Shown here in pieces: positions 23,564 through 48,213 of a stretch of DNA of 64,000 bases; the first letter of the stretch is position 1, and each line of letters opens with the position of its first letter. Source of the DNA: Phycisphaerae bacterium (GTDB taxonomy: Bacteria > Planctomycetota > Phycisphaerae > UBA1845); assembly GCA_963666835.2 (NCBI GenBank), contig CAXXGO010000001.1, positions 736,001-800,000 on the forward strand. The letters are read 5' to 3'. The position numbers were made by a program, and so were the translations under genes. The notes beneath the pieces are model-generated. The model searched no databases. It saw only the letters and a program-made list of their open reading frames with translations, and was not told where the DNA came from.

Positions 23564-26500
23564 TCAGTGCCCCGAAGGTTTCGGCCCCATCAGGAACGGG
23601 ACGTTCGGGTAGACAACACCGGCATCGATCGCCAGGATCCGACCATCCCCGTTGATGTCGCGCCGCTCGTCATCAGCGGCATTCAAGGTCGGGACTCCCG
23701 TGTAAACCAAACCGGCATCGATCGCCAGAACACGGTTGTCGTCACTGGCATCACCCACGGCCACCGCGTAGTGAATCTCGAACGGCAACACATTCTGCCA
23801 GCCGCCGATGTTACGAACGGCGTACCACTTCTTGTGCTGCAGAGTGGAGCCGTTATCCCAGATCCGCAAAGTGCGCGGGTTGCCACTGCTGTCCGCCTCC
23901 ACCGTCATGCTGAACGCGCCCGACAGATCGGGACCAAACGCGCCACCGGGAAGGAGTTCCTGGATCATCACCTGTCCGGCGCCCGGTGGGGTGATGTCCA
24001 GATCGAAGCCCAGGCGTGCGATGTTGTGTGCTGACCGCCACCAACTGTGGTTGGGCTTCGGATTACTCCGAATCCACTCGGCCGGCTTCGTGGTCAACAC
24101 GAAGGCCATGTCCCAACGCACGGTCGGCGGATCCCCCAGGGGGTAACCCTGTTCGAACGTGTTACCGATCTGCGGAGCGTTCGGGACCTGGACTACCACG
24201 GCACTGTCGTTAAAGAAGTGCTCGCGCGTCTTCCAACCCCAGACGTATGGACCCGGGTCGGTCTCCTGGATGGCCGAGATGCTCACCCAGAAGATCTCGC
24301 AAGCCGGTCCCTGACGGAACCACAGATCTTCGGGAATGAGGAAGTCGTACCGGAAGCACGTATCGACCGGCGTACCGGGCACCGAGTCGCACCCGACCGC
24401 ACGCTCGTTGAGCACATCGCGCGAAACGCGCCACTCCCAGATCATCTCTCGCGGACGACTCCAGGGCAGGGTGGAGGACGCCGGCTCGTCGGTCCATATA
24501 CCAATGTGGAACGCAATGGGTGCGTTCTGCGGAGGCAAGTCTTCGCGCCAGCCGACATACGAGCCCCACCAGTGGATGTCGGTGATCGGGTGATCGTTCA
24601 TGCACGCCCAATCATCGGCCACGACGGCCTTTCCGTATGCCGACGGCTCATCCCAGCCCCAGAAACATACGGAAGGAGAGTCGGGGTTAAAGGTCGGGGG
24701 TTGTGCCCATTTCAACGGGTGACAAATCCGGTCGTCACAGGTCGTCCCGGGCCCCTGCGGATCTCCACGCCTCAACACGCAGTCCGTATGGGTCAGTTCG
24801 ACGCAACTGCCGTCACGCAGACAGCACGCCTGGATCAGTTGCAGATCCTCGCAGGCGTCATCGACTCCGTTTTGGTTCCAATCGCCCAGGCAATACGGAG
24901 CATTCCACGGGGACGGTACTCCGCCGAGATCGTCACAGCAGAGCGGATCGACTTCCGTGCAGCCGCCGTCCGGCAGGCAACACGCGATCGTGTAGTCCAC
25001 GCAGGCCGTGTTGGGTCCCTGCCGAACGCCACCGAGGTCATCGCAGCAGAGCGGGTCGAGATCCAGACAGACCCCGTCCTCCACGCAGCACGCTTCGACT
25101 CGTGTGCAAACGGTGCCCGGACCCTGCGGAGTTCCGCCGCGATCCTCACAGTCCTGCGGAGTGAGTTGTACGCAAGTACCGTCATCCAGGCAGCAGGCTT
25201 CCTTCGCCATGCACACGCACTCGTAGTACTCCGCCTCGGGCAAGACCGTGACGGTCATTTCGCAGATTTCCGCGGTATTCGGGCAATCTCCGGTGCAATA
25301 TGGTTCTATAGTAAGGGCTTGCTCAACGTGGCAGTAGCCCCGGTCGATGCACTCACATTCCACGATCTCCCATGGCGAGGGGGGCGGCGGCAGAATGTGG
25401 ACAACCTGGATAATCCGGAATCCGGTCGGCTGATTCTCCACGTCCAGAAGATCGACGCCGTTCCAATCACCAGGGGTCTCGAAAGAGCTGCCGAGCGGCG
25501 GAATCGCATAAAGGCCGCCGGCCAGCAGCGGAATCGGCTCACGGTTCCACAAACCGCTCACACCCTGATCCGGAAGGTCGATCTCCACGAAGACATCGAA
25601 GAAACTCTCCGCCGGGAAGTCCGTACCCGGCAAGTCGGCTCCGACAACCTTGCCTACGCTCGGACGCTCGTTCGGGGCCAGGCGGATCATGGCCGGCTGG
25701 CTTGCCGGACCGAGTGCCGACAGATCCATCTGGACAATCTCGGTATCGATGACGCGGTGAGTACCCACATCCTCCGGATCGCTACGGCGTACCACGGTCA
25801 AGTTCGGCTCTTCTCCCGTGATCTCGAAAGCTGCTACCCCGCCGGTAGGGCTCTGGATTACGACAACTCCGGTAGTCGGGGACAGAACGTCCTCTCCTGC
25901 CGGTGGGAACTCCGTTTCGGGCAGATCATGCCTGATTACCTTCGGCAGGCATATCTGCATTGGGTCGGGACATTGGATGTTGAAACACGCAGTTCCATCC
26001 AGATTGGGCTCGCAATCCGGCGGCACATCTTCGCACGCGTCATCCCATCCGTTCTCGTTCCAATCGCCCAGGCAGTGCTCCGAACCCCAGGGAGATGGGA
26101 TCCCGCCGAGATCGTCACAACAGAGTGGATCGACCTCGACGCACTCGCCCTCCGCCAGGCAGCACGCGACCGTCATGTCGACGCAGGCCGTGTTGGGCCC
26201 TTGCCGAGTTCCGCCAAGCTCGTCGCAGCACAGCGGATCGACTTCCACGCACACGCCGTCATCGATGCAGCAGGCCTCAGGCTGAGTACAGAGAGTGTTC
26301 AGACCCTGCGGGATTCCCCTGCGGGCGATACAATCATCCGGAAGCAGATCCAGACAGGTGCCGTCCTCCAGACAGCAAGCCTCCGGACGCGGCTCCGGAA
26401 CACAAACGCACTCAAAGAGGTCGTCGATACCGTCGTCATCGACGTCTGAGACGGTCATCTCGCAGATCTCTTCAGGTGGGCAGTCGCCAGTGCAGTACGG

Positions 26501-28012
26501 CAGCGTACCGTCGACGTAGTTGATGTGGCAGTAGTCTCGGTCGATGCACTCGCATTCCACGACCCGCCAAGATGCGGACGTCGGATCGGACGGGTCGTGC
26601 TTAATGACCTTCGGCAGGCAGACCTGCGTCACTTCGGGGCATTGGATCGGGAAGCACGCCGTACCTTCCAGATTGGGTTCGCAATCCGGCGGCAGATCCT
26701 CGCACGCATCTTCTATCCCGTTCATGTTCAAATCGCCCAGGCAATACGGCGAACCCCACGGAGAGGGGTACCCGCCCAGGTCGTCACAGCAAAGAGGATC
26801 CACCTCGACACAAGCACCGTCCGGCAGGCAGCACGCGATTGTCATATCAACACACGCGGTGTTGGGCCCTTGCGGTGCTCCGCCGAGATCGTCACAGCAC
26901 AGCGGGTCGAGTTCCATACAAGCGCCGTCGCCCAAGCAACAGGCCTCCGGCTGCGTGCAGACCGTTCCGGGGCCTTGCGAAACACCCCTGATGGCGGCGC
27001 AATCGTCCGGGAGCAGATCCAGGCACGTACCGTCATGAACGCAGCACGCCTCCGGCTCCGGCAGTGGCACACATACGCACTCATAGTACTCCGCATCGGG
27101 CAAGACCGTGACGGTCATCTCGCAGGTTTCATTGTTCGGACAATTTCCGGTGCAGTACGGTTCCGTAGTGTCGGAATACTCGATATGGCAGTCATTCTCG
27201 CTGAGGCAGTCGCACTCGATAACCAGCCATGGCGGACGTTTCGGTGGTAGGGTGTGGGCGACCTCGATGATCCGGAACCCGGATGGTTGATTCTCCACAT
27301 CCAGAAGATCAACGCCGTCCCAAGCCTCCGGAGTTGCGAACGTGCTGCCCAATGGTGGAAGCGCGTCCACGCCGATCGCCGACAGCGGAATACGATCGGC
27401 GGCCCTTAGCCCGACTACCCCGCTGTCAGGAAGATCGATGGTCACAAAGACATCGAAGAAGCTGTCCGCCGGGTAATCGCCGGCCGCGGACGGTAAACCC
27501 AGGACGCTCCCCAGGCTCGACTCGTTGGGGTCCAGGTGGATTATCGCCGGGTGCCCAATTGGGCCGGTCGCCCACAACTCCATCTCGACAATCTCAGTCT
27601 GAACCAGCCGAAAAACACCGCTGCTCTCCGGATCGCTGCGGTTCACCACGGTTACGTTCGGATCCTCACCGGTGATCGTGTAGGTTTCCACTTCACCGGC
27701 GAGATTCTGAATCAGAACATGCCCGGTCGTCCCCTCCAGAACGTCCTGGCCGCCCGGCGGGAAAGCGATGTCAGGCACAATGCGCTGAATCACTCTCGGC
27801 ACGCAGACCTGGGAAAGCTCCGGGCAGACAACATCGGTGCATCCGGACCCGTCGTCCAGCGGTTCGCAAACCGGATCCGCCGCTTGTTGCGCGCCGTTGA
27901 CGATCTGGTTAGTCCCCGCACTCAGTAACAATGGGGTACTGGCGGCCCACCCGACCGACGCAGACCCCACCCCCAACGCCATGATTAGCGCAACGCAAAA
28001 AACCCTCTTCAT
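23564..28012 (-). CDS. Giant secreted Cys-rich repeat protein with C-terminal dockerin-like pair (1482 aa)
   Basis: Signal peptide; about ten ACCxxDGxC repeats; duplicated SFFDVFV domain; KWAQPP...ADDW...IHWWGS domain; GDASDDNRVLAIDAG and DINGDGRILAIDAG. Confidence 0.75.
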   Translation of the reverse strand: MKRVFCVALIMALGVGSASVGWAASTPLLLSAGTNQIVNGAQQAADPVCEPLDDGSGCTDVVCPELSQVCVPRVIQRIVPDIAFPPGGQDVLEGTTGHVLIQNLAGEVETYTITGEDPNVTVVNRSDPESSGVFRLVQTEIVEMELWATGPIGHPAIIHLDPNESSLGSVLGLPSAAGDYPADSFFDVFVTIDLPDSGVVGLRAADRIPLSAIGVDALPPLGSTFATPEAWDGVDLLDVENQPSGFRIIEVAHTLPPKRPPWLVIECDCLSENDCHIEYSDTTEPYCTGNCPNNETCEMTVTVLPDAEYYECVCVPLPEPEACCVHDGTCLDLLPDDCAAIRGVSQGPGTVCTQPEACCLGDGACMELDPLCCDDLGGAPQGPNTACVDMTIACCLPDGACVEVDPLCCDDLGGYPSPWGSPYCLGDLNMNGIEDACEDLPPDCEPNLEGTACFPIQCPEVTQVCLPKVIKHDPSDPTSASWRVVECECIDRDYCHINYVDGTLPYCTGDCPPEEICEMTVSDVDDDGIDDLFECVCVPEPRPEACCLEDGTCLDLLPDDCIARRGIPQGLNTLCTQPEACCIDDGVCVEVDPLCCDELGGTRQGPNTACVDMTVACCLAEGECVEVDPLCCDDLGGIPSPWGSEHCLGDWNENGWDDACEDVPPDCEPNLDGTACFNIQCPDPMQICLPKVIRHDLPETEFPPAGEDVLSPTTGVVVIQSPTGGVAAFEITGEEPNLTVVRRSDPEDVGTHRVIDTEIVQMDLSALGPASQPAMIRLAPNERPSVGKVVGADLPGTDFPAESFFDVFVEIDLPDQGVSGLWNREPIPLLAGGLYAIPPLGSSFETPGDWNGVDLLDVENQPTGFRIIQVVHILPPPPSPWEIVECECIDRGYCHVEQALTIEPYCTGDCPNTAEICEMTVTVLPEAEYYECVCMAKEACCLDDGTCVQLTPQDCEDRGGTPQGPGTVCTRVEACCVEDGVCLDLDPLCCDDLGGVRQGPNTACVDYTIACCLPDGGCTEVDPLCCDDLGGVPSPWNAPYCLGDWNQNGVDDACEDLQLIQACCLRDGSCVELTHTDCVLRRGDPQGPGTTCDDRICHPLKWAQPPTFNPDSPSVCFWGWDEPSAYGKAVVADDWACMNDHPITDIHWWGSYVGWREDLPPQNAPIAFHIGIWTDEPASSTLPWSRPREMIWEWRVSRDVLNERAVGCDSVPGTPVDTCFRYDFLIPEDLWFRQGPACEIFWVSISAIQETDPGPYVWGWKTREHFFNDSAVVVQVPNAPQIGNTFEQGYPLGDPPTVRWDMAFVLTTKPAEWIRSNPKPNHSWWRSAHNIARLGFDLDITPPGAGQVMIQELLPGGAFGPDLSGAFSMTVEADSSGNPRTLRIWDNGSTLQHKKWYAVRNIGGWQNVLPFEIHYAVAVGDASDDNRVLAIDAGLVYTGVPTLNAADDERRDINGDGRILAIDAGVVYPNVPFLMGPKPSGH

Positions 28013-28215: not shown

Positions 28216-29967
28216 TCAGGCGATTTCCGGCGGTGGTCCGGCCAGAGCTTCGAATTGCTCGAGTGCCGTGCGATCGCCCTGGCGGACGAGCTCGATATCA
28301 CGATGTACGGTGGGGATGCCAGTCTCGATGTAACGGCGGGTGACGAGTCGCTTGTGGTCATCGACTTTGGCCTGCCGCAACAGGAGGTGACCGATAAGAA
28401 CGGTCATGGCGGCGTCGACGAGCCGCCGCCCGAAGAGGTCCATATTATCGCCCCCGCGCTCCTTAACCGCGGCAACACCTTCAAGCACGAGTTTTCGGCC
28501 CTCTACGAGCATGTTCTGCAGTTTGCGTAGAGACTCGTCTGTGAACTCGTGCCGCTCCAGTTCCTCGACCCGTCTGGCAAACGCGCCACCGCACACGCCG
28601 CGCACGGCGGCGACGATCTGCAACTGACTGGTGCCCTCGTAGATTGACGTAATCCGAGCGTCGCGCAGGTGTCGCTCCGCGGGGTAATCCCTCATGTAGC
28701 CCGACCCGCCCAGCACTTGGATCGTGTCGTTGGCGATTCTGATGCTCGTCTCCGAGGCCAGGTACTTGCTCATCGGCGTCAACATGCCGGCAAGCCGCTT
28801 GAGGATCCGGGCGTCATTCTTTCGCCGCTTCAACTCGTCCTTGTCGGCCGGGGGGTTCGTCTCCAGCACGCGCAGGTTGTTATTTTCCAGGTCTACGATC
28901 CGGGCGGTTTCGTATACCAACGTGCGAGCGGCTTCCAAGGCGACCTTCATGCCGGTGACCATCTCGGCCACGGCTGGAAGCCGTTCGATGCGCACTCCGA
29001 ACTGCTGACGGGTGTGGGCGTAATTACGGGCGCAGCGGTAGGCGGCTTCGGCGATTCCCAAGGCCTGGGCTGCGACCCCGAGGCGGGCGCCGTTCATCAA
29101 GCTCATCGTATAGCGGATGAGCCCCAATTGGCGTTCGCCGACCAGTTTGGCCGGGACGTCGTCATACACCAGCTCGCACGTCGGCGACCCGTGGATTCCC
29201 AGTTTGTTTTCCAGTCGGCGAACGCGGAGACGCGGATCACGTTGGTGGACAAAGAGGCTCAGCCCGCGTCCGTCGCTGATTTCCGGCTCGCTTCGCGCCA
29301 GAGTCAGCAGGACATCTCCACAACCGTTTGTGATGAAACGCTTCACCCCGGTGAGACGCCACTGACCGTTATCGTCCTGCCACGCGCGCAGGCCGACCAC
29401 CTGCAAGTCACTGCCGGCATCCGGCTCGGTCAGAGCCATGGCTCCGGTGACTTCGCCCCGAGCGAACTTCGGCAAATACTCCTTCTTGGTCTCTTCATCC
29501 GCGAAGGCATTAATGGTCTCTCCGATTCCCTGAAGACCGAAGAGGTTCATCAACGAGGCATCCGCCCGGCTGACGATCTCGACCGCCATGGTGTAAACAA
29601 GCGAGGGGAAATTCAAACCTCCGTAGGCTCGCGGCAGGGTAAACGCCATTAAGTCCGCCTGCCCGAGTACGTTGAGATTCTCTTGCACGGCGGGGCTAAG
29701 TGTGACCGTGCCGTCCGGGTTCAACGTGTGGCCTTCTTGGTCCACCTGCTCGGCGCGGGGAGCTATACAATTGGCAGCGACGTCTCCGACGATGGCGAGG
29801 ACCCGACGGTAATTGTCGATGGCATCCGCGGCGTCGCGCGGGGCGTAGTCAGCCCCCGGTCCGTTCGTGCTCTGGAAACCGTCTTCCTGAACTGTTGCCA
29901 CCTCGCTGAGGTCGAAGTGGTCAAAAAGGAAGCGAATGTCGTCGTTGTCTTCGAAGAAGTTAGCCAT
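28216..29967 (-). CDS. Acyl-CoA dehydrogenase
   Basis: MALTEPDAGSDL, G.KRFITNG, KLGIHGSPT, R.QFG, GGSGY, IYEGT. Confidence 0.95.
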   Translation of the reverse strand: MANFFEDNDDIRFLFDHFDLSEVATVQEDGFQSTNGPGADYAPRDAADAIDNYRRVLAIVGDVAANCIAPRAEQVDQEGHTLNPDGTVTLSPAVQENLNVLGQADLMAFTLPRAYGGLNFPSLVYTMAVEIVSRADASLMNLFGLQGIGETINAFADEETKKEYLPKFARGEVTGAMALTEPDAGSDLQVVGLRAWQDDNGQWRLTGVKRFITNGCGDVLLTLARSEPEISDGRGLSLFVHQRDPRLRVRRLENKLGIHGSPTCELVYDDVPAKLVGERQLGLIRYTMSLMNGARLGVAAQALGIAEAAYRCARNYAHTRQQFGVRIERLPAVAEMVTGMKVALEAARTLVYETARIVDLENNNLRVLETNPPADKDELKRRKNDARILKRLAGMLTPMSKYLASETSIRIANDTIQVLGGSGYMRDYPAERHLRDARITSIYEGTSQLQIVAAVRGVCGGAFARRVEELERHEFTDESLRKLQNMLVEGRKLVLEGVAAVKERGGDNMDLFGRRLVDAAMTVLIGHLLLRQAKVDDHKRLVTRRYIETGIPTVHRDIELVRQGDRTALEQFEALAGPPPEIA

Positions 29968-29972
29968 ACCCG

Positions 29973-31001
29973 TTATTCCCGTCCCTTGATGGCCTTTATC
30001 ATGGTCGGGATCACTTTGCGCAGATCTCCGACGATTCCGTAATGGGCAACAGAGAAAATCGGTGCGTTCGGGTCCGAGTTAATCGCGATGATCTTGGCGG
30101 ATTCCTCCATCCCTGCCCGATGCTGGACCGCTCCACTGATGCCGCATGCGATATACAACGCCGGACGGACCGTAGTCCCGGTCTGTCCCACTTGATGTTC
30201 CTTGCCGATGAGACCGCCGTCGACCGCGGCACGCGACGCGCCCACGGCCCCGCCTATGGCGCCGGCCAAGTCATGGATGTACTTGAAGTCGTCTTTGCTG
30301 CCGACTCCGCCGCCGCCGGCAACGATCGTTCGCGCCGCTTTGAGGTTGACCAAACGCTTTTCGCGGTGACGTTCGATCAACCGCACGGCCAACTCCAGGT
30401 CATCGAACTCCATCTGTTCTTCGATCACTTCCCCGCGGCGCTTTGGGTTGCCTTCGGCCAGGCGCATGACGCCTTCGCGCACCGTGGCCATCTGAGGCCA
30501 GCGATCGAAGTTGATGATTGTCGCGATGATATTGCCGCCGAACGCCGGACGGATCTGCAGGAGTAGATTCCGATGGGTTTCCTTCGTCTTGGGCTCGACA
30601 TAGTCGCCGATGTCCAGGCCCGTGCAATCCGCCGTCAGCCCGGCGCGCATTTCGGAAGCCACCCGCGGAGCCAAGTCCCGTCCGAGCGGTGTTGCTCCGA
30701 AAAGCACGATCTGCGGTCGGTGTTTGGTAACCAGCCGGCACATCACCCGCGCGTACGGCAAGGTGCGGTAATGCTCCAACTCGGGATGACCCACGTGATA
30801 GACCCGGTCGGTCCCCTGGGCGATGAGCTGGTCGGCGAGGTTGCGGGCGTTCGACCCGGCCAGCACGGCGCCGGTCGACACCCCCAACTGATCCGCGAGT
30901 TCTCTGGCCTTGCCACAGAGCTCCAGCGCCACGTCGTTGAGACTGCCGTCTTCCTGCTCGGCGAAGACCCAGACTTCGCCATCTCGATTCGGTTCGATCA
31001 T
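29973..31001 (-). CDS. etfA: Electron transfer flavoprotein alpha subunit
   Basis: GLTADCT, RPAFGGN, GASRAAVD, QVGQTG, GISGAVQH. Confidence 0.95.
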   Translation of the reverse strand: MIEPNRDGEVWVFAEQEDGSLNDVALELCGKARELADQLGVSTGAVLAGSNARNLADQLIAQGTDRVYHVGHPELEHYRTLPYARVMCRLVTKHRPQIVLFGATPLGRDLAPRVASEMRAGLTADCTGLDIGDYVEPKTKETHRNLLLQIRPAFGGNIIATIINFDRWPQMATVREGVMRLAEGNPKRRGEVIEEQMEFDDLELAVRLIERHREKRLVNLKAARTIVAGGGGVGSKDDFKYIHDLAGAIGGAVGASRAAVDGGLIGKEHQVGQTGTTVRPALYIACGISGAVQHRAGMEESAKIIAINSDPNAPIFSVAHYGIVGDLRKVIPTMIKAIKGRE

Positions 31002-31082
31002 GGTCAAGCTTTCAGAGTTTTGCGTCCGGCGATCGGCCTGCTCTGTCGCGACTCAAGCCCCGGTCGGGCGGACGCCGGCGGA

Positions 31083-32003
31083 TTATCCCAGCGTATGGTC
31101 GACGATAAGCTCGTGAACCAGTCCCCGAATGCCTTCCTCGGTGGGAGGAACTTCCGTGTAGCCTTCTTTCGTCAGGACGATCGACTGAATGCGGTGGACC
31201 TTCGTCGGTGAGCCGGAAATTCCACACCATTGCAGATCCGCGTCGAGGTCGTCCAGATTCCACTGCTCGGTCAGCAAGCCCTTCATCCGAAGATGTTCGA
31301 GCCGCTTGCCTAACTCTACCTCGCGCTGCTCGGCGGCGGCGTCAGGCATGGCCGAAGCTACCTCGCGGCTGACCTCCGCCTCTACCCGGGCGCGTTTGTA
31401 GCGCATGACGCGCTTGGCACTCGGGGGGCGAGGTTCGTTAGCCGTGTCCAGCGCCGTCACCAACAGCGGCAGTTGGGCCTCCAGCACTTCCCAGCCGTTG
31501 CCGACGTTGCGGCGGATGCGCACGGTGCGGTCGGTCAAGTCGACCACCTCTTCGAAGTACGTTACCTGAGGTAAGCCGAGCTTCTCGGCCATTTGCGGGC
31601 CGACTTGGGCGGTATCGCCGTCGATGGCCTGCCGGCCACAGAATACGAAATCGTAGTCTCCGAGCTTCCGAACCGCTTGGCTGAGGATGTAGCTGGTCGC
31701 CAGCGTATCGCTGCCCGCCGCCCGCCGGTCGCTCACCAGAATCGCCCGATCCGCCCCGCGGTACAGGCACTCCCGCAAGACTTCTGACGCCCCCATGGGC
31801 CCCATCGTCACGGCCGTGACCTCTCCGCCGTACTGGTCCCGGACCCGCAGGGCAGCCTCCAAGGCGTGGAGATCCTCTGGGTTGAAAACCGCGGGAAGGG
31901 CCTCGCGATTCACCGTCCCATCCGCCTTCATCGCCTCTCCGGTGATGTTAGCGGTATCCGGTACCTGTTTGACACAAACGATACAGTGATAGCCCAAAAC
32001 CAC
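31083..32003 (-). CDS. etfB: Electron transfer flavoprotein beta subunit
   Basis: VCVKQVPDT, NPED, TMGP, DTLAT, GRQAIDGDTAQVGP, GSPT. Confidence 0.95.
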   Translation of the reverse strand: MVLGYHCIVCVKQVPDTANITGEAMKADGTVNREALPAVFNPEDLHALEAALRVRDQYGGEVTAVTMGPMGASEVLRECLYRGADRAILVSDRRAAGSDTLATSYILSQAVRKLGDYDFVFCGRQAIDGDTAQVGPQMAEKLGLPQVTYFEEVVDLTDRTVRIRRNVGNGWEVLEAQLPLLVTALDTANEPRPPSAKRVMRYKRARVEAEVSREVASAMPDAAAEQREVELGKRLEHLRMKGLLTEQWNLDDLDADLQWCGISGSPTKVHRIQSIVLTKEGYTEVPPTEEGIRGLVHELIVDHTLG

Positions 32004-32317: not shown

Positions 32318-33604
32318 ATGAGCACCAAGCCGTTCAATGCATTCGCGATGGCTCAAGCCCAGTTCGATAAGATCGCTGAGACCCTCGGGCTGGACCAAGG
32401 TACTATTGACCTGCTACGACATCCGATGCGTGAGTACCACTTCAGCCTGCCCGTGCGGATGGACGACGGGTCCACCAAGGTCTTTCGCGGGTTTCGCGTG
32501 CAGCACAACGACGCCCGGGGTCCGGCAAAGGGGGGCATTCGGTTCCACCCCCAGGAGACTGCCGATACGGTGCGTGCCCTATCGATGTGGATGACCTGGA
32601 AATGCGCGGTCGCGGACCTGCCTCTGGGTGGTGGCAAGGGCGGGGTGATCTGCGAGCCGCACAACCTGAGCATGAACGAGCAACAGAGTATTTGCAGAGC
32701 CTTTGTGCGGCAGATTTCTCGGGATTTGGGGCCCTTGCGCGATGTCCCGGCTCCTGACGTCATGACCTCCGGGCAGCACATGCTCTGGATGCTCGACGAG
32801 TACGAGCAGATTCACGGCGGGCACTTCCCCGGCGTCATTACCGGAAAACCCGTCGGCATGGGGGGGTCCCTCGGGCGGACCGAGGCCACCGGCTACGGCG
32901 TCGTGTTTACGGTCCGGGAGGCTTTGAAGGAGCTCAATGTTCGGCCGCAAGACACGACTGCGGCCGTGCAGGGATTCGGTAATGTCGCGCAATACGCGAT
33001 CGAACTATTCAACCAGATCGGGGGTACGGTTGTGGCCGTTTCCTGCTGGGACCAGGGGGACCAGAAACCCTATACGTTCCGGAAGAAAGGCGGTGTGGAT
33101 CTCGCCGAACTGCGCAAGATCACCGATCGTTTTGGAGGTATCGATAAGCAGAAAGCCGCGGAACTCGGCTATGAACAGTTGCCGGGTGAGGCGTGGATAG
33201 AACAGGATGTCGATATTCTGTTTCCCTGTGCGCTGGAGAACTCGATCACGGTGGACAACGTATCGAACATCTCCAAGCGCGTGAAATTGATCGCCGAGGG
33301 GGCCAACGGCCCGACAACGCCGGAAGCGGACCACATTCTTCACGAACGCGGCATCTTTGTCATCCCGGACTTCTTGGCAAATGCCGGTGGTGTCACATGC
33401 AGCTACCTGGAGCAGGTTCAGAGCAACATGAACTACTTCTGGGATAAGGACGAGGTGCTCGGCAAGCTCGATGTGATGATGACCTCGGCGTTTATCGGCG
33501 TAAGTAGCATGGCCCGCAAGCGCAAGCTGTACATGCGTGACGCGGCCTATACCATTGCTATCGCGCGTGTGGCGCAAGCATGCAAGGACCGAGGTTGGGT
33601 ATAG
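32318..33604 (+). CDS. gdhA: Glutamate dehydrogenase (Glu/Leu/Phe/Val dehydrogenase family)
   Basis: RGPAKGGIRFHP, GGGKGG, DVPAPD, GGSLGRTEATG, QGFGN, EGANGP. Confidence 0.92.
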   Translation: MSTKPFNAFAMAQAQFDKIAETLGLDQGTIDLLRHPMREYHFSLPVRMDDGSTKVFRGFRVQHNDARGPAKGGIRFHPQETADTVRALSMWMTWKCAVADLPLGGGKGGVICEPHNLSMNEQQSICRAFVRQISRDLGPLRDVPAPDVMTSGQHMLWMLDEYEQIHGGHFPGVITGKPVGMGGSLGRTEATGYGVVFTVREALKELNVRPQDTTAAVQGFGNVAQYAIELFNQIGGTVVAVSCWDQGDQKPYTFRKKGGVDLAELRKITDRFGGIDKQKAAELGYEQLPGEAWIEQDVDILFPCALENSITVDNVSNISKRVKLIAEGANGPTTPEADHILHERGIFVIPDFLANAGGVTCSYLEQVQSNMNYFWDKDEVLGKLDVMMTSAFIGVSSMARKRKLYMRDAAYTIAIARVAQACKDRGWV

Positions 33605-33636
33605 TCGCACAAGTACATTAGTTGGTGGACAGCTCG

Positions 33637-35382
33637 ATGAGCCGGACGCCGAATTCAGGCATGTACCCGCGCTTCGACCGCAGATTCTTCGGGGCGGACG
33701 AAGATTTCACCGTCATCGGCGGTGGTGGACTCGGGGGGAAGGCCCTGGGGCTTGCTTCGGCCAAACGTATCGTTGAAGAAGCGTGCCCGGCGGGCAGCTT
33801 CCCCGAAGTGCAGATTGGCATCCCTCGCCTGGCTGTATTGGGGACGGAAGTCTTCGAGCAGTTCATGGCGCAGAACGACCTGTACAAGGTCGCCTTGGCG
33901 GACTTGCCGGATGAACGGATTGTCCACGAGTTCATCAAAGCGGAGCTTCCACCGGTTTTCGTTGGCGATCTGCGGGCCTTGATCGCGCAGATTCACCGAC
34001 CGTTGGCCGTGCGCTCATCCAGCTTGTTGGAAGACGCCCTGCAGCATCCTTTCGCAGGTGTGTACGCCACCAAGATGATCCCGAACAACCAGGCCGCAGT
34101 TGGTGACCGATTCAAGAGGCTCGTTGAGGCCGTCAAGTTTGTCTGGGCTTCGACGTTCTTCCGTGACGCCCAAAGCTATATGCGCACGATCGATCATCCA
34201 ATCGAAGAAGAGCGGATGGCGGTGATTATTCAGGAAGTTGTGGGCGAGCGCTTCGGGGACCGATTTTATCCCATTGTCTCTGGGGTTATTCGCACGCACA
34301 ACTACTATCCAATCGCTCCCGCCCGGCCGGAGGACGGCGTGGTGAACCTCGCGCTGGGGTTGGGCAAGACAATCGTCGATGGTGGAGTGACCTGGACTTA
34401 CAGCCCGCGGTTTCCGAATCGTCGCCCTCCGTTTGGATCAACCGGCGAGCTGCTCAAGAACACGCAGACACAGTTCTGGGCGGTCAGTATGGAACAGGCC
34501 CCGTACGATCCGATCAACGAGGCCGAGCATCTTACACAATCGGGGCTCGATGCGGCGGAGTGGGACGACGTCTTGCGTTTCACGGCGTCGACCTACGACG
34601 CCGCTTCAGACCGGGTGACCCTTGGTACCGCGACGACGGGCCCGCGCATTCTCACGTTCGGGCGCATACTTGAACTGGGTGATGTCCCGCTCAACGATGT
34701 GGTGAAGCGACTGTCCAGCTACTGCAAGGACTCGTTGCAGGCCGACGTGGAGATTGAGTTCGCCTTGACATTGGATCGTCAAGACGGTCTACCGGCCCGG
34801 TTCGGGTTCTTGCAGGTGCGTCCAATGATGGTGGCGCAAGAGTCGGTGTACGTGGATGAAGCTGAGTTGAGAAGCGATCGCGCGCTGGTCGCCAGCGAAA
34901 TGGTGTTGGGCAATGGGCAGAGCCGTACGATTACGGATGTGGTGTATGTGAAGCCCGGGGTGTTCGAGGCGAAACACACTCCGGTTATTGCCGCAGAAGT
35001 GGACGTGTTGAATAGAGGACTCGTTTCTGAGCAGCGGCCGTACTTGCTCATCGGGTTCGGACGTTGGGGCAGCAGCGATCCGTGGCTGGGGATTCCCGCC
35101 ACGTGGCCGCAGATTTCCGGCGCGCGGGTAATCGTCGAGGCCACGCTGCCGGAGATGAACGTGGACGCCAGCCAAGGGTCGCACTTCTTCCACAACATGA
35201 TTAGCTTCCACGTGCAGTATTTTACGGTGCGGCACTCCGGGTCGTACGCGGTTGCCTGGGATTGGCTTGACCGCCGGCCGGCTTTGGGCGAGACTCGGTT
35301 CCTGCGGCACGTGCGGCTTGATGTGCCACTCGAAATCCGCGTGGACGGCCGCAATGGACGCGGTGTCATTCTCCACAACTGA
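33637..35382 (+). CDS. PPDK/PEP-synthase N-terminal (ATP-grasp) domain protein
   Basis: GGKA.GL, AVRSSSLLED, FAGVY, MAVIIQE, GLG, IEFA, LQVRP; C-terminal GRWGS...GSHFF; no TIM barrel. Confidence 0.85.
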   Translation: MSRTPNSGMYPRFDRRFFGADEDFTVIGGGGLGGKALGLASAKRIVEEACPAGSFPEVQIGIPRLAVLGTEVFEQFMAQNDLYKVALADLPDERIVHEFIKAELPPVFVGDLRALIAQIHRPLAVRSSSLLEDALQHPFAGVYATKMIPNNQAAVGDRFKRLVEAVKFVWASTFFRDAQSYMRTIDHPIEEERMAVIIQEVVGERFGDRFYPIVSGVIRTHNYYPIAPARPEDGVVNLALGLGKTIVDGGVTWTYSPRFPNRRPPFGSTGELLKNTQTQFWAVSMEQAPYDPINEAEHLTQSGLDAAEWDDVLRFTASTYDAASDRVTLGTATTGPRILTFGRILELGDVPLNDVVKRLSSYCKDSLQADVEIEFALTLDRQDGLPARFGFLQVRPMMVAQESVYVDEAELRSDRALVASEMVLGNGQSRTITDVVYVKPGVFEAKHTPVIAAEVDVLNRGLVSEQRPYLLIGFGRWGSSDPWLGIPATWPQISGARVIVEATLPEMNVDASQGSHFFHNMISFHVQYFTVRHSGSYAVAWDWLDRRPALGETRFLRHVRLDVPLEIRVDGRNGRGVILHN

Positions 35383-35407
35383 GTCTTGCTGCTCACGGGG
35401 ACTCCCT

Positions 35408-38400
35408 ATGACCGATCAAGATGGCCGGGTAGCTGATATTCTCCGATCACTGCAGGAGCGGGCTAAGGAACTTAACTGCCTCTATCGAGTGGAGGAAATC
35501 ACCGACACCGATCTACTGACGTTAGAGGAGGTGTTTGAAGGCGTTATCGACGCCATTCCTCCGGGCTGGCAGTATCCGGAAGTCTGTGTCGCCCGTATTT
35601 GCTACGACGGCAAGGTGTACGCCACCAGGGGTTATCGCGAGACGGAATGGTCTCAGGAAGCACCTATTCGTGTGTACGGGGAGGTGGTCGGCACCTTGGA
35701 TGTCGCTTATCTTCAGCAAATGCCCCCGGCCGACGAAGGCCCCTTCTTCAAGGAGGAACGTAAGCTCCTCGAGACGATCGCCGAACGCATTGGCAGTTGT
35801 GTGACACATCGCCGTCTCTTGGAAACCATGCAAGGCATGCGCGATTCCGAGAATGCCTCCCGGCGCAGGGGCCGGGAATGGGCGGCGATTCTCGATCTTC
35901 TGCACCATACGGATCAGGGCTTGCTGATGCGCGTGGCCCGCAAGATGATCAACCACCTGTGCTGGAGCGGAGTGAAGGACGCGGGTGAGATTCTGCAGGA
36001 GTTTCGCCCCCATGTTGAACCGCACGAGCCGGAGGTGTTTTTCGAGTCGAACCGGCCGCGCGATCGGGCGGCCGCCCCGTCGGCCACAGCGCTGGCGGAC
36101 CGAGTCTTCGAGCTGGCGGCGGCGCATCTCAGCGACGATGAGATAATCTCGTGCATCCATAACTGGATCAAGCAAGATCGAGCCAGCTTCCTCGTGAACA
36201 CGCTCGAGAACCACCACACGACGATTACCGAGGTCAGCGACGCCATCCAGCGTTACCGGCACGCCGGTCACGGCGAGGTCGAACTCTCGCCGTCGACGCG
36301 CAAAGGCCTTTTGGTGTCGCTCGTGCGGCGGTTTCTTTCCGATCAGCTCGAGTACATCAACGTTGCCAAGAACTATGTGGAAATCAAGGATTTTCACGAG
36401 TTGATCGGGCGGCTCATCTACCCGGCCCGGGAGCACGGAAAAACCGGCGGCAAGGGGGCCGGGCTCTTTCTCGCCTACCAGATCGTCCGGCGGCACCGCG
36501 AGGAGGACAAGCTCCTTGCGGATATCAAGACACCGAAGACCTGGTATCTGACGTCCGATGGGATGCACGATTTCGTGTACTGCAACCACCTTGAAGATGT
36601 ATTTTCCCAGAAGTACAAAGAGATCGATGAGATCCGCCAGGAATACGACGATGTCGTGCAGGTTTTCAAGAACTCGCAGTTCTCGGCGACCATTGTCAAG
36701 GGCCTGTCGCTGGCGTTGGATGACCTGGGCAACAAGCCGCTGATCGTCCGTAGCTCCAGCTTGCTGGAAGACCGCTTCGGGGCGTTGTTCTCGGGGAAGT
36801 ACAAGAGTCTGTTTCTGGCGAACCGGGGGACTAAGCAGGAACGCCTTGATTCCCTGATGGATGCCATTGCCGAAGTATACGCATCGACGTTCGGCCCGGA
36901 TCCGATTCAATACCGGGCCGAGCGAAACCTGCTTGACTTCCAGGAAGGAATGGGCGTGCTCATTCAGGAGGTCATCGGAACACAGATTGGAGATTACTTT
37001 CTTCCGGCGTATGCGGGTGTTGCCTTTAGCCACAACGAATTCCGCTGGTCACCGCGCATCCGACAGGAAGACGGGCTGGTGCGTCTCGTTCCCGGTTTGG
37101 GCACGCGCGCCGTGGACCGGGTCGGCGATGATTTTCCGATCCTCGTTTCGCCCGGTCAGCCCGGTTTACGGGCAAACTCGACGCCCGAAGAGGTCGTCCG
37201 GTATTCACCTCGCTACCTGGACGTCATCAACCTGGTTACCAACAAGTTCGAAACGGTTGACGTCGCTCAGTTTCTGCGCAACGTCGGCGACGAGTTTCCG
37301 GCCGTGGAGCAGTTGGTTTCGGTATTCTCCGACGGGAATCTGCGACAGCCTATGCCCGGCAGCGTCGATTTCGAGCAGGATGACCTGGTAGTCACATTTG
37401 AAGGGCTTCTGAGTCGAACACCGTTTGTCAAACAGATCGATGCCCTGCTGAGACTCCTCGAACGCGAGTGCGGTTACCCGGCGGATATAGAGTTTGCGTC
37501 AGACGGGAAAGACCTGTACTTGCTGCAGTGCCGCGCGCAGGCACCTGCGAAACATGCGAAGCCGGCGCCCATCCCGCAAGATGTCCCGCAATCCAGGATG
37601 ATCTTCTCGGCAAATCGCCATATCTCTAACGGAACCGTGCCGAACATCACGCACATAGTGTATGTCGATCCCGAGCAGTATGGCCGGCTCGGAAGCCGCG
37701 AGGAGCTGCTTGCTGTTGGACGGGCGGTCGGGAAGCTCAACAAGCTGCTCCCCAAGCGGCAGTTCATCCTGATGGGCCCCGGACGCTGGGGCAGTCGCGG
37801 TGATATTAAGCTCGGCGTGCCCGTGACATACTCGGACATCAACAACACGGCGATGTTGATCGAGATCGCCCGCAAGACCGGTGACTACACGCCCGATGTT
37901 TCATTCGGCACGCATTTCTTCCAGGATCTTGTCGAGGCCGATATCAGGTATCTTCCGCTCTATCCGGATGATGCCGACGTCGCCTTCAACGAGCCGTTTC
38001 TGACTCGCTCGTCGAACCTGTTGGCGGAGCTTGCCCCCAAGTTCGAGTCCCTCCGTGAAACGGTGCGGGTGATTGACGTTCCCCGAGCGGCGGATGACCA
38101 AGTGCTTCATGTGTTGATGAACGCCGAACTCGAGCAGGCGGTGGGCGTGCTCTCCGATCCGGCCGAGCGTTTGGACTACGACGATGACTCCGCGGAGGCA
38201 CCCGCGGCTCCGGACGAGCAGGATTGGCGCTGGCGCGCCCGCATGGCTGAAAGCGTTGCGGCGCACCTCGATCCCGCGCGGTTTGGCGTAGAGGCTTTGT
38301 ACGTGTTTGGCAGCACGAAGAACGCAACAGCCGGACCCGCCAGTGACATCGATCTGCTCGTACACTTCGTCGGAGATGAAGAACAGCGGCGCGATTTGGA

Positions 38401-38602
38401 TCGGTGGTTTGAAGGATGGAGCCTCTCACTTAGCGAAATCAACTATCTTAGAACGGGCTATCGTAACAGTGGTCTACTCGATGTGCATATTGTTACCGAT
38501 GAGGATCTCGCAAAACGTACGAGCTATGCAGTCAAGATCGGGGCGGTGACCGACGCCGCCCGCGAGCTGCCGCTCGGAACGGCGTGTTCTGCCGTGGGCT
38601 AA
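35408..38602 (+). CDS. GAF-like + PPDK N-terminal ATP-grasp + nucleotidyltransferase fusion protein (~1064 aa)
   Basis: ERAKELNCLY...PPGWQYPE sensor-like domain; GGKG, IVRSSSLLED, DIEFA, LQCR; GTHFF; C-terminal YVFGS...SDIDLLV. Confidence 0.85.
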   Translation: MTDQDGRVADILRSLQERAKELNCLYRVEEITDTDLLTLEEVFEGVIDAIPPGWQYPEVCVARICYDGKVYATRGYRETEWSQEAPIRVYGEVVGTLDVAYLQQMPPADEGPFFKEERKLLETIAERIGSCVTHRRLLETMQGMRDSENASRRRGREWAAILDLLHHTDQGLLMRVARKMINHLCWSGVKDAGEILQEFRPHVEPHEPEVFFESNRPRDRAAAPSATALADRVFELAAAHLSDDEIISCIHNWIKQDRASFLVNTLENHHTTITEVSDAIQRYRHAGHGEVELSPSTRKGLLVSLVRRFLSDQLEYINVAKNYVEIKDFHELIGRLIYPAREHGKTGGKGAGLFLAYQIVRRHREEDKLLADIKTPKTWYLTSDGMHDFVYCNHLEDVFSQKYKEIDEIRQEYDDVVQVFKNSQFSATIVKGLSLALDDLGNKPLIVRSSSLLEDRFGALFSGKYKSLFLANRGTKQERLDSLMDAIAEVYASTFGPDPIQYRAERNLLDFQEGMGVLIQEVIGTQIGDYFLPAYAGVAFSHNEFRWSPRIRQEDGLVRLVPGLGTRAVDRVGDDFPILVSPGQPGLRANSTPEEVVRYSPRYLDVINLVTNKFETVDVAQFLRNVGDEFPAVEQLVSVFSDGNLRQPMPGSVDFEQDDLVVTFEGLLSRTPFVKQIDALLRLLERECGYPADIEFASDGKDLYLLQCRAQAPAKHAKPAPIPQDVPQSRMIFSANRHISNGTVPNITHIVYVDPEQYGRLGSREELLAVGRAVGKLNKLLPKRQFILMGPGRWGSRGDIKLGVPVTYSDINNTAMLIEIARKTGDYTPDVSFGTHFFQDLVEADIRYLPLYPDDADVAFNEPFLTRSSNLLAELAPKFESLRETVRVIDVPRAADDQVLHVLMNAELEQAVGVLSDPAERLDYDDDSAEAPAAPDEQDWRWRARMAESVAAHLDPARFGVEALYVFGSTKNATAGPASDIDLLVHFVGDEEQRRDLDRWFEGWSLSLSEINYLRTGYRNSGLLDVHIVTDEDLAKRTSYAVKIGAVTDAARELPLGTACSAVG

Positions 38603-39462
38603 ACAAGCGTCCGCGTTGCCGTAGTGGGGTCCGCCGGGTCGAAGCGAATCAGAGCCAGTTCCGGACCGTCGTGAGCGGCGGAGAAGCAATGCGTTTGCCC
38701 GATACGTTGTGACCATGCCCCCGTAATCTGCGCCGATTCATGGATGTGTCCGTGCAACGTGACCAGCGGCTGCCTCCGTTCCACGAACCGTTTGACGGCA
38801 ACGCTTCCGACATGCACATCGAGCGGCGCGTGGTCTATCATCTTCCCGTCCAGCGCCGCGCGATCCAGGTCCGTCTGGTACGGGGGGGAGTGGAACAGGA
38901 AGATGGCTTCGTCGACGGCTCGGTCACCAACCAAGCCGGTCAGGTCATCGGCGATGGTTGCGTACCTGACTTGGTTATCGGGCACCGGAATCGAGCGATG
39001 TCCGTCCTCCGGCGATACACACCCGGGATCCACGTACCGCGAAACGTCGTATCGTTCCCAGTCCTTCAGCAAGAAGGGCGTCGGCGGTACATAGGCGTAC
39101 CCGTACACGTCGCGGCCCGAGAATGAGACTCGGCGGTCATGGATGTACTCCCAGATGCCGGTAGTCGCCGCCGCGATTACCGCCGCCTCTTCCGATCGGC
39201 TGTCGTCATTACCGAGAATCACGAAAACGCGGGGATAAGCCTCGCCGAGATCCTCCCGAAGCCGCGTGAGCCGGCGGGCGAGGAAGCCGTTCACGAAATC
39301 CTCGTGGCCGAAATCCAGTGACTCGGCCGCCGAGAGCCCGGAGGGCAGCAAGTCTCCTCCTGCAAAGACTGCCTTCGGCCTCTCGATACTGATCAGCTCG
39401 AGCAGTTTCTCGTACCGGTCCACCCGGCCGTGCAAATCTGAGACGAAGAAACAGGTCGACAT
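38599..39462 (-). CDS. Calcineurin-like metallophosphoesterase (Icc-related)
   Basis: SDLHG, GGDL, GNDD, HSPP, HGHIHE. Confidence 0.88.
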   Translation of the reverse strand: MSTCFFVSDLHGRVDRYEKLLELISIERPKAVFAGGDLLPSGLSAAESLDFGHEDFVNGFLARRLTRLREDLGEAYPRVFVILGNDDSRSEEAAVIAAATTGIWEYIHDRRVSFSGRDVYGYAYVPPTPFLLKDWERYDVSRYVDPGCVSPEDGHRSIPVPDNQVRYATIADDLTGLVGDRAVDEAIFLFHSPPYQTDLDRAALDGKMIDHAPLDVHVGSVAVKRFVERRQPLVTLHGHIHESAQITGAWSQRIGQTHCFSAAHDGPELALIRFDPADPTTATRTLV

Positions 39463-40126: not shown

Positions 40127-40945
40127 TCATGTAAGGTAAGGCCAGAGGGTCTGGACCGTGCCCTGGGCAACGACTGAGCCCAACCAAGTGAACGGGAAGA
40201 CGAGTGGGATCAAAAGACCCGCCAACCATCGGGGGCGATTGCGGATGAGCAACACCGTTGCCAGAACCGCCCACCACCAATAGAAGATGATCGTGACACC
40301 CCAATCCGGCCGGATAAGGCTGCTCGGATTCAACGGCCAGACGAAGGTCGTATCGGACAGCGAGGAGACTAAGGGGGGGGCCTCAACGAACGTCCAACCT
40401 GCAACGAAGCAGGTCGAGTAGAAGGATACGATGAGCCACAGGCGGAATCGGGCGTACCAGCGCGGCGAATCGGCAGACTGTCTGAAGCACAAGGTGGCGA
40501 AGACCAGCGACTGCGCCAGTATTACCGCGGATACCGGCAGCACTGCAGTCGCAGCTTCTATAAGCAGATTCCCCCATGCATCTAGGTACCACTGAGCCAC
40601 GCTCAGACAACACAACACCGCCACGATCAGACTCGGCCAGATCGCTTCGTCGGTGCGCACCTGCCGGGCGAAGCGCCACGGAGTGAATAGCATCACCATA
40701 ACGGTCATGAGCGTCTGATCGACCTTCCGCCGACCGCGGGCTCTATGAGCGGGCGTGCCCACTCGCCGACCTTCCACGCCGCTTCGCGCCAATTCCCAGT
40801 CGATCTGACATCCGCACTCGGGGCAGACGTCCGCAGTGAGCCCCGTCAGGTTGTATCCGCACTCCACGCACCGATCGCCCGTGTCTTCCACCGGCGGGCA
40901 TGCAGAGCCCGACGTGGCCGCCGACGTATGTGGTTCTTGTGGCAT
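40127..40945 (-). CDS. Hypothetical membrane protein with double zinc ribbon
   Basis: CVECGYNLTGLTADVCPECG followed by several TM segments. Confidence 0.7.
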   Translation of the reverse strand: MPQEPHTSAATSGSACPPVEDTGDRCVECGYNLTGLTADVCPECGCQIDWELARSGVEGRRVGTPAHRARGRRKVDQTLMTVMVMLFTPWRFARQVRTDEAIWPSLIVAVLCCLSVAQWYLDAWGNLLIEAATAVLPVSAVILAQSLVFATLCFRQSADSPRWYARFRLWLIVSFYSTCFVAGWTFVEAPPLVSSLSDTTFVWPLNPSSLIRPDWGVTIIFYWWWAVLATVLLIRNRPRWLAGLLIPLVFPFTWLGSVVAQGTVQTLWPYLT

Positions 40946-46583: not shown

Positions 46584-47384
46584 CTACGGCGTATCAGCCG
46601 CGATGATCTCGGTTATGTGCTGCGGCAATGGCATAATCACCTGGTATTCTTCGCCTGTTCGCGTGTCGGTGACCGACGCACACGCCAGCCCAAACGTGTA
46701 CCATCGCGCATCCTCTGCCTTCCCGGTTGGGCTGACCATCATCTTGGCCGGGCTCCCGGATACGAAATCGGGAGACGAGGGCTGGACGACCACGATATCA
46801 TTGGGCAGGTTGATGCCGCGGATTTCTTTCCAGTTTGGTCGTTCAACCACACGAAAGACCAACGGATCGGTTGCCGGGAACGCCGGCGCCACAAGGACAA
46901 TCTCGCCGGGCTTTGGACGAAGAGTCGGGTCGACGTATCTGTCCCACTCGCTGACGGCGCAGCCTTCGTAAAGCTGAATCAGTGCAAAATCACCGCCCTG
47001 CGGGTCGATTGGTATGTGTTCTTGCAGTCTGCCGGCCATCCAGACGTCTCGACAATTAATCCGGGCGACGGTGCCGGGCAACGGTACCGGGGCAAACCCA
47101 AAACCAGCGTTTGCGCCTACAATGGGCGTTTTGAAGCAATGCGCGGCTGTTACTACGGCGTGAGGTGCCACCGGGAATCCAGGGCAAATCTCGCTGTCAC
47201 CGGACTTTGGAGGGCCAAGCACCTGTCCCGCTACGAATCCGAAATCCAGCGGTTTACCGAAGTAGTCACTCGCCCTGGGCGCGTAGACATGGGATGGGGC
47301 AGCGCACCCCATTGAGAAAAGTCCCCATCCCGCCACGACGAACAACCTCAGACTTGGGCGAAGGCTCGCACTGATCTTCATCAT
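46584..47384 (-). CDS. Trypsin-like serine protease lipoprotein (paralog 1)
   Basis: SMGC lipobox; VVTAAHCF, DFALI, SGSP. Confidence 0.65.
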   Translation of the reverse strand: MMKISASLRPSLRLFVVAGWGLFSMGCAAPSHVYAPRASDYFGKPLDFGFVAGQVLGPPKSGDSEICPGFPVAPHAVVTAAHCFKTPIVGANAGFGFAPVPLPGTVARINCRDVWMAGRLQEHIPIDPQGGDFALIQLYEGCAVSEWDRYVDPTLRPKPGEIVLVAPAFPATDPLVFRVVERPNWKEIRGINLPNDIVVVQPSSPDFVSGSPAKMMVSPTGKAEDARWYTFGLACASVTDTRTGEEYQVIMPLPQHITEIIAADTP

Positions 47385-47403
47385 CTAATCTCCAAAGGGG
47401 ATC

Positions 47404-48213
47404 CTACGGCGTATCAGCCGCGATGATCTCGGTGATGTGCTCCGGCAGCGGCACGATTACCATGTGCTCTTCACCAGTTCGGGCGTTGGTGACACCCGCG
47501 CACGCCAATCCAAACGTGTACCACCGCGCATCCTCCGCCTTGCCGGTGGTGCTGACCATCATCTTCGCCGGGCTCCCGGATGCGAAATCGGGAGACGAGG
47601 GGTGAACGACCACGATATCGTCGGGTAGGTCGATGCCGCGGATCTCTCCCCACTCGGGTCGTTCAACAACACGAAAGACCAATGGATCAGTGTCCGGTGG
47701 CGCCGGCCCCACAAGGACAATCTCGCCGGGCTTCGGCCGAAGAGTCGGATCGATATACCTGTCCCACTTGCTCACGGCGCAGCCGTCGTAAAGCCGAATC
47801 AGCGCGAAATCACCCGCTTGCGGATCGATCGGAACATGTTCTTCCAGTTTGCCGGCCATCCAGACATCTCGACAGTCCATCCGCGTAACGGTGCCGGGCA
47901 CGAGCGTCGGCACCGGCGCTAACCCAAAACCAACACTCTCGCCGACTCCCGTTGGCGGCCTGAAACAGTGACCGGCCGTTACTACGGTGTGGGGTGCTAC
48001 GGGGAACCCCGGGAAGTACCGGCTATAACCGGGCGTCAAACCGCGAGCCAAGTGCCCGGTGACAAACCCGAAATCCAATTGCCTGCCGAAGTAGTCACTC
48101 GCCCGAGGCGTCTGGACACGGGATGGAGCAACGCACCCCATCAAGAAGAGTGGCCATGCCGCTACAACGAACAACCTCAGGCTTGGGCGAAGGCTCGCAC
48201 CAATCTTCATCAT
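47404..48213 (-). CDS. Trypsin-like serine protease lipoprotein (paralog 2)
   Basis: LMGC lipobox; VVTAGHCF, DFALI, SGSP. Confidence 0.65.
   Translation of the reverse strand: MMKIGASLRPSLRLFVVAAWPLFLMGCVAPSRVQTPRASDYFGRQLDFGFVTGHLARGLTPGYSRYFPGFPVAPHTVVTAGHCFRPPTGVGESVGFGLAPVPTLVPGTVTRMDCRDVWMAGKLEEHVPIDPQAGDFALIRLYDGCAVSKWDRYIDPTLRPKPGEIVLVGPAPPDTDPLVFRVVERPEWGEIRGIDLPDDIVVVHPSSPDFASGSPAKMMVSTTGKAEDARWYTFGLACAGVTNARTGEEHMVIVPLPEHITEIIAADTP

Follow-up and report, generated by a model that had tools for sequence, protein, structure and literature searches.

The window analysed here is a 64,000-nt stretch of the forward strand of a Phycisphaerae bacterium genome (contig CAXXGO010000001.1, positions 736,001 to 800,000). 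It carries a glutamate dehydrogenase (GDH) gene, gdh, followed by genes for two paralogous dikinase-like proteins, here named A and B, and by a metallophosphoesterase gene, M, that converges with B and overlaps it by 4 nt (Table 1). An earlier reading of the DNA made without database searches, hereafter the sequence-only reading, had proposed that these genes form a covalent-modification system, and its description of the locus held. The gaps that it had put at about 30 nt were 32 nt between gdh and A and 25 nt between A and B, the overlap of the convergent phosphoesterase was as described, and both paralogs contained the dikinase ATP-grasp domain (PF01326 PPDK_N, E 5e-33 and 5e-53 for A and B, respectively). 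GRWGS and G(S/T)HFF motifs were found in both, with the His codons where they had been placed (CAC at 35182 for His516 of A and CAT at 37913 for His836 of B). As it had also claimed, the phosphoenolpyruvate (PEP)/pyruvate TIM barrel was missing from both proteins, with no Pfam match to PEP-utilizers or PEP-utilizers_C at E ≤ 0.1, and B contained a nucleotidyltransferase domain (NTP_transf_2, E 6e-7, above the cut-off). The GAF match at the N-terminus of B was below the cut-off (E 0.001–0.008). A stopped 65 residues past its His, B ran on into the minimal nucleotidyltransferase (MNT) domain, and the two proteins were 26% identical across 526 aa.

Table 1. Positions of the cassette features in the window; the detached pair in the last row is given by locus.
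Feature	Position	Strand	Description
gdh	32318-33604	+	428 aa; PF02812 + PF00208
Protein A	33637-35382	+	581 aa; ATG 33637; ATP-grasp and His domain, no sensor, no acceptor barrel
ATP-grasp (PPDK_N) of A	33730-34848	+	K35, R126, T145, E374, Q393, R395 present
GRWGS...GSHFF domain of A	34825-35379	+	predicted divergent phospho-His swivel fold; His516 codon at 35182
Protein B	35408-38602	+	1064 aa; ATG 35408; GAF-like sensor, linker region, ATP-grasp, His domain, MNT
GAF-like domain, N-terminus of B	35447-35797	+	weak GAF match
ATP-grasp (PPDK_N) of B	36443-37585	+	K349, R448, S467, E695, Q707, R709
GRWGS...GTHFF His domain of B	37547-38152	+	His836 codon at 37913
MNT of B, Pol-beta-like	38198-38599	+	G968-S969, D980, D982, D1025
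Metallophosphoesterase M	38599-39462	-	287 aa; PF00149 E 2e-9; DxH, GGDLLP, GNDD, H191, HGHxHE; diesterase-type active site
Stand-alone MNT + M pair	L155:6226-7797; L156:5793-7530; L157-L159	convergent	

The neighbourhood of the family was compared across 80 loci, the best 80 of 560 relatives in a GTDB scan that covered 9 of the 64 parts into which the collection is divided; these loci are B-like by selection. Source labels in the databases for family members include 'pyruvate, water dikinase', and the names PEP synthase and PPDK are wrong for these genes. An ordinary PEP synthase or PPDK whose barrel is supplied in trans would agree with the labels and with weak matches to PEP-synthase models, and we consider it extremely improbable: the matches of A and B reached 20–60 bits against cut-offs of 500–1350, and no barrel gene recurred among the 80 loci. 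Because the window genome also encodes a separate full, canonical PPDK-like gene, a PEP-forming role of A and B is unneeded.

The ATP-grasp domain appeared intact throughout the family. Conservation was scored in 179 open reading frames (ORFs) that had been collected through only their ATP-grasp part (loci L001-L041 and L045-L124, at least one contig being present twice), of which three were removed because the frame ended ahead of the C-terminal domain. In the remaining 176 relatives R126, E132, D133, E374, Q393, G475, R476, E501 and G514 were invariant and K35 was kept in 174, and the catalytic Lys/Arg/Glu/Gln/Arg set of the ATP-grasp was conserved in 174–176 of them. The His on which the sequence-only reading had built its proposal was invariant as well (176/176) and was kept in 148 of 150 distant representatives. 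With a 12-residue tag offset allowed for, K35, R126 and T145 of A aligned with K22, R117 and T136 of rifampin phosphotransferase (RPH), the residues that position ATP in the available description of that enzyme (PMC4844700). A structure model of A (predicted local distance difference test score, pLDDT, 89.8) contained only the ATP-grasp and the His domain, and Foldseek matched it to RPH, HpeI, PEP synthase and PPDK, with E 1e-14 to 2e-10 for the best ATP-grasp matches and the RPH/PEP-synthase-type folds ranking over PPDK. Thousands of relatives were found for each protein (8000 of 8000 candidates scored for A and 7583 of 7999 for B), and 1486 clusters at 50% identity had the C-terminal His domain. 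Genomes with a family member numbered 55/301, 140/301 and 24/121 in three phylum samples, for which the query differed. Eight of the 120 listed B matches were A-B fusions with A first. Two matches in a 'phages' collection were unannotated faecal contigs.

The His domain resembled a phospho-His swivel in its predicted fold. Modelled alone, the domain of A reached a pLDDT of 95.6, and in a VIA comparison with 999 chains the top 13 rows were all phospho-His swivel domains. The best was PPDK 371-509 (Z 6.8, root-mean-square deviation 3.8, 124 residues aligned), followed by the isolated PPDK carrier domain (Z 6.7), RPH (Z 6.7), the extra domain of pyruvate kinase (Z 6.6) and enzyme I (Z 5.5). By eye, His516 was at the N-terminus of a helix, with a His-to-next-strand spacing equal to that of TSHAAVVARG. 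The domain has GxHFF where PPDK and PEP synthase have TSHAA, and it is about 185 aa long versus the approximately 125–140 aa of the PPDK swivel that were aligned. In this structural comparison, which the sequence-only reading had called for, all top rows were thus swivels, with scores confined to Z 5.5–6.8. Pfam, PDB profile, hhalign and Atlas searches found no sequence-level homology to known swivels; the PDB profile search gave no match at E < 0.2 and Atlas no usable match. We assign the domain with moderate confidence, from the models, as a divergent phospho-His swivel.

The first gene of the cassette does encode a glutamate dehydrogenase, as its earlier designation gdhA implied, but by its sequence it is assigned to an archaeal/GudB-like group, here named G1, and not to the NADP-type GdhA of E. 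coli. Its best NCBIfam model was GdhA_Arch (466 bits, below the cut-off of 750), and the nearest solved structures were 1euz/1gtm and GudB/RocG-type chains. It retains the ELFV domains together with K71, K95, K107 and S362, the three lysines being what we take to be glutamate-site lysines. A W244-D-Q-x-D...Y252 stretch (window 33047-33073) was conserved in G1 GDH, with W244 invariant in 62 sequences. The stretch, which contains an insertion relative to 1euz just past the coenzyme-binding strand, is a candidate docking or modification site. The role in glutamate catabolism that had been proposed is not established, and other members of the family pair with NADP-type GdhA.

The gdh-dikinase arrangement recurs far beyond chance. 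The genome titles of the 80 B-like loci spanned more than 10 phyla, and the gene-neighbourhood analysis suggested by the sequence-only reading gave a G1 GDH in 60 of the 61 B loci with at least 4.5 kb upstream and A in 51 of these 61. M was found in 40 of the 60 loci with downstream room, and 37 of the 40 were convergent. Apart from gdh, A and M, no recurring partner gene was seen among the 80 loci, nor was any conserved metabolic neighbour other than gdh. The reciprocal test was made in 301 genomes of another phylum (that of G321), where G1 was defined by more than 690 bits with a clear gap beneath. G1 was present in 71 genomes and the B type in 80; 70 genomes had both, 220 had neither, and in the only genome with G1 alone the gene was near a contig end. 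Within this sample 70 of the 84 G1 copies were within 8 kb of B. In the phylum of the window genome, an ELFV-dehydrogenase domain was encoded no more than 10 kb from a family gene in 34 of 54 family-positive genomes, compared to about 0.7 expected, and in the phylum of G322 this was the case for 21 of the 24 positive genomes and 38 of 42 matches. These co-occurrence counts are descriptive, since related genomes are not independent.

Individual loci showed further arrangements. One member not linked to gdh adjoins glutamate mutase E/S genes and a GAF-sigma54 activator (L041:4107-11454), another precedes carAB (L018), and a third is beside a glutamate-synthase-like gene (L020). At L160:1108-7996 a G1 gdh and a B without MNT are followed by two tandem divergent ELFV dehydrogenases, 31–33% identical to G1.

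The family was also found with a second GDH group and with other N-terminal domains. The window genome contains a second cassette (L001:8844-13361; G000:C1:1716843-1721360, minus strand) in which an NADP-type gdh (453 aa) is followed by a gene for a 985-aa protein, C, with a pair of receiver-like domains and a core that shares 43% identity with A, and by eye a transposase-like ORF comes after it. Both GDH groups, G1 and NADP-type, hence have a dikinase-like partner. C replaces A beside a B-like gene in L027, L161, L165 and L166. A is a usual yet dispensable partner of B, fused to it in some genomes and replaced by type C in others; its status as an obligatory subunit was rejected on its presence in 51 of the 61 loci. 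Further subfamilies of 770–950 aa combine a B-like core with other N-termini and have no MNT. A KaiC-like N-terminus noticed by eye in an 870-aa subfamily had no Pfam support and was dropped. In three loci (L086:1-2916, L091:12968-16073 and L097:1662-4759) type C is split into a receiver-part gene and a core gene with a divergent His domain; each of the three has the split form at its G1 cassette, and in L086 it adjoins an NADP-type gdh.

The GAF-like domain of B was also found at the head of sensor histidine kinases, in all four other matching ORFs, and the exchange of GAF-like and receiver input domains across the family points to a regulated enzyme. The receivers raise the alternative of a phosphorelay, in which the His-phosphate would pass to receivers or response regulators that control gdh transcription. 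By eye, the phospho-acceptor Asp is retained in the second of the two receiver-like domains of C in 6 of 7 aligned sequences, and two-component-type ORFs, judged from their sequences, recur in 13 and 6 of the 80 loci. We nevertheless hold a phosphorelay to be very unlikely, as A and B have neither a receiver nor a DNA-binding domain, no regulator is a constant neighbour in the 80 loci, and the receivers of C are N-terminal, where B has its sensor, a placement that fits an input role.

Type C also occurs in gut bacteria. In two of three named Bacteroidales records C is between two gdh genes, and the third has no gdh within 8 kb; in the Parabacteroides and Phocaeicola records C is 3′ of one gdh with other genes intervening (3.5–4 kb). 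Baggio and Morrison reportedly described trans-acting control of Bacteroides GdhA in 1996. We take type C of the Bacteroidales as a lead only for the trans-acting factor downstream of gdhA.

MNT and M are present in the window as had been described, and they form an accessory sub-module in which M tracks MNT and not the dikinase. In the 301-genome sample of the other phylum, a fused MNT was found in 31 of 80 B-type genomes and was absent from 40 of the 70 genomes with both GDH and B; divergent MNTs may be missed in these counts because 51 weak rows of the search were unlisted. M occurred in 27 genomes, 27 of 36 with MNT versus 0 of 44 B genomes without it. Five genomes carry M in convergent orientation with a stand-alone MNT (about 140 aa) at a site distant from gdh and B; four of the five share flanks, which leaves about two events of joint relocation. 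The link was less clean in the phylum of the window genome, with three close M relatives, two beside B-MNT and one in a genome without a match to the MNT query, and four MNT genomes without M. The MNT motif GS...DxD...D (G968, S969, D980, D982, D1025) was kept in at least 90% of the 80 sequences, and at about 135 aa the domain matched only NTP_transf_2/Polbeta and, below the cut-off, MntA.

The active site of M suggests what it may remove. GNDD was present in 47 of 47 relatives, mostly with GGDLLP, and an Arg within four residues after GGD occurred in only 3 of 48 rows; M lacks the Arg of the monoesterase motif GDxxDR and the His of GNH(D/E). According to the available text on CthPnkp, its Mn-dependent monoesterase activity depends critically on Arg237 and His264 and its diesterase activity does not (PMC2190708). 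M is predicted from these motifs to be diesterase-only, and removal of a phosphate from GDH is an unlikely function for an enzyme without the two residues on which the monoesterase activity of a characterised relative depends. Both its co-occurrence with MNT and its active site spoke against M as the eraser of the dikinase phosphate, a reading that was rejected. Because M occurs with MNT only, relocates with it and has a diesterase-type site, it likely reverses a protein-nucleoside monophosphate bond made by MNT. All five genomes with the detached pair still carry GDH and B, so the target of MNT is probably B/A or GDH.

Taken together, control of GDH by the family, through whichever route, seems to us fairly probable. 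The best reading is that of a sensor-gated His-dikinase, resembling the mycobacterial VadK described below, which regulates GDH, probably by phosphotransfer. A and B would transfer the beta-phosphate of ATP to their own invariant His (ATP to AMP + Pi), and the His-phosphate would then pass to the neighbouring GDH and switch its activity. B is predicted to be gated by the GAF-like sensor, while MNT and M would add and remove a nucleotide tag as a separate layer; the signal and the direction of the effect on GDH are parts of the proposal that we infer. Phosphorylation of GDH in trans by such a sensor-gated enzyme is put forward tentatively, and covalent phosphotransfer to GDH itself is plausible while falling short of probable. 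More doubtful is the joint proposal of a new class of protein kinase that transfers the beta-phosphate via a divergent swivel His onto GDH, with an MNT/phosphodiesterase tag cycle as the second tier and the Bacteroidales member as the trans-acting factor downstream of gdhA.

Several observations weigh against phosphotransfer to GDH. The evidence for GDH as the target comes entirely from genomic context, and this context has exceptions: 10 of the 80 B-type genomes in the 301-genome sample have no G1, 20 of 54 genomes in the phylum of the window lack a gdh within 10 kb of the family gene (in many cases at a contig end), and members in L013, L015, L021 and L041, and likewise in L065, are unlinked despite room. 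The pairing is not strictly type-specific, as B with MNT is beside an NADP-type GDH in L022 and L027. The cassette encodes no dedicated phosphate eraser. For the His domain, VIA gave no fold match at Z 8 or above among the 999 chains, Foldseek gave nothing at E ≤ 0.001 (E ≥ 0.04), the profile-profile score from hhalign (12.9) was inside the shuffle range of 9.3–20.5, PF00391 matched 0 of 95 sequences, and the His-to-His register in the fold comparison was judged by eye only. Phosphate transfer from VadK to a partner protein is not shown in the accessible part of its description (PMC13400623). Finally, the nearest folds, RPH, HpeI/HpeHI and PEP synthase, are those of enzymes that phosphorylate small molecules.

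The last point leads to a different reading, namely that the family is a small-molecule enzyme. The acceptor of its His-phosphate would then be a metabolite (glutamate, 2-oxoglutarate or a derivative) that binds to the enlarged His domain, to the A/B pair or to GDH itself, and the cassette would extend the chemistry of GDH instead of regulating the protein. The His domain exceeds the PPDK swivel in size, its invariant GRxG and E501 could form a binding site, and the unlinked members in L041, L018 and L020 are near glutamate mutase, carAB and glutamate-synthase-like genes. We still regard this as unlikely, since no acceptor-binding domain is present, no downstream pathway genes are conserved in the 80 loci, the input domains swapped across the family are of a signalling type, and copies are duplicated together with gdh duplicates (L161, L165). 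Another alternative is a non-covalent regulator, in which B/A, depending on their phospho-His state or on bound nucleotide, would dock on the GDH hexamer and act allosterically on an unmodified GDH. GDH is controlled by protein partners in the GudB-GltAB, GarA and APRTh systems, which provide a precedent. A regulator of this kind shares the genomic evidence for phosphotransfer and would agree with the lack of an encoded phosphate eraser, and VadK, in the available text, binds methylcitrate-cycle enzymes and tunes flux (PMC13400623). It seems to us quite unlikely all the same, as a fully invariant catalytic set, His included, in both paralogues suggests turnover, with the qualification that autophosphorylation alone would need that set too.

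Other features of the window were set aside or noted in passing. An etfB-etfA-acyl-CoA dehydrogenase operon (28216-32003, minus strand) diverges from gdh across 314 nt; this operon and the ORF at 40127-40945 were rejected as parts of the system, each being beside the cassette in 0 of 80 loci. Promoter and terminator scans gave matches at chance level only. By eye, the ORF at 23564-28012 on the minus strand encodes a protein of 1482 aa that looks secreted, contains many Cys-rich repeats (ACCLxDGxC...DPLCCDDLGG) and ends in a dockerin-like C-terminus, and tandem paralogous lipoprotein-like ORFs of 266 and 269 aa with the trypsin-like motifs TAAHC/TAGHC, GDFALI and SGSP are at 46584-48213 on the same strand.

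The GDH-linked system is real and widespread, and it is apparently undescribed: no description of a GDH-linked dikinase family was found in full-text literature searches, judged from listings, that covered only a minor part of the subscription papers and old scans. We know of no dedicated covalent control system for bacterial GDH, an enzyme that connects carbon and nitrogen metabolism. Whichever mechanism holds, the mislabelling as PEP synthase or PPDK misleads metabolic reconstructions. The family reaches gut Bacteroidales, where genetics is possible, and should GDH prove to be the acceptor, dikinase chemistry would be a route to protein phosphorylation and the trans-acting control of Bacteroides GdhA said to have been described in 1996 would become directly testable.

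Glutamine synthetase is controlled by the nucleotidylylation cascade of GlnD and GlnE, and a two-tier covalent GDH cascade, if true, would parallel it. The cassette shares with GlnD/GlnE a Pol-beta-type nucleotidyltransferase, a removing activity (predicted for M) and the setting of a nitrogen enzyme. It differs in its minimal MNT of about 135 aa, in a calcineurin-like putative eraser in place of an HD domain and in that MNT is optional to the GDH link, and no PII gene was seen as a recurring neighbour. With PPDK and PEP synthase, A and B share a PPDK_N ATP-grasp and, after it, a His domain that in fold comparison matches the PPDK central domain best; unlike them they have no TIM barrel, have GxHFF instead of TSHAA and score far under the curated cut-offs. 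RPH and HpeHI, as far as the accessible descriptions go (PMC4844700; PMC12167813), have in common with A and B the ATP-grasp fold, the K22/R117/T136 equivalents and a C-terminal His domain, predicted to be swivel-like in A and B, whereas for A and B a substrate-binding domain is encoded neither in cis nor by a neighbour; the family has sensor domains and the linkage to GDH. VadK (Rv1127c) is presented in the available text as a mycobacterial His (di)kinase that evolved from PPDK, autophosphorylates its His, located by overlay on PPDK structures, and interacts with methylcitrate-cycle enzymes (PMC13400623). From that description, the ATP-grasp domains of A and B are set apart by ranking nearer to RPH, HpeI and PEP synthase, and A and B also differ in a His domain unrecognisable by sequence, in GAF-like, receiver or MNT domains and in being tied to gdh. 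Like A and B, VadK combines ATP-binding and His domains in a truncated PPDK relative without an acceptor domain and is tied to the control of metabolic enzymes, and by this analogy it is the closest working model for the cassette.

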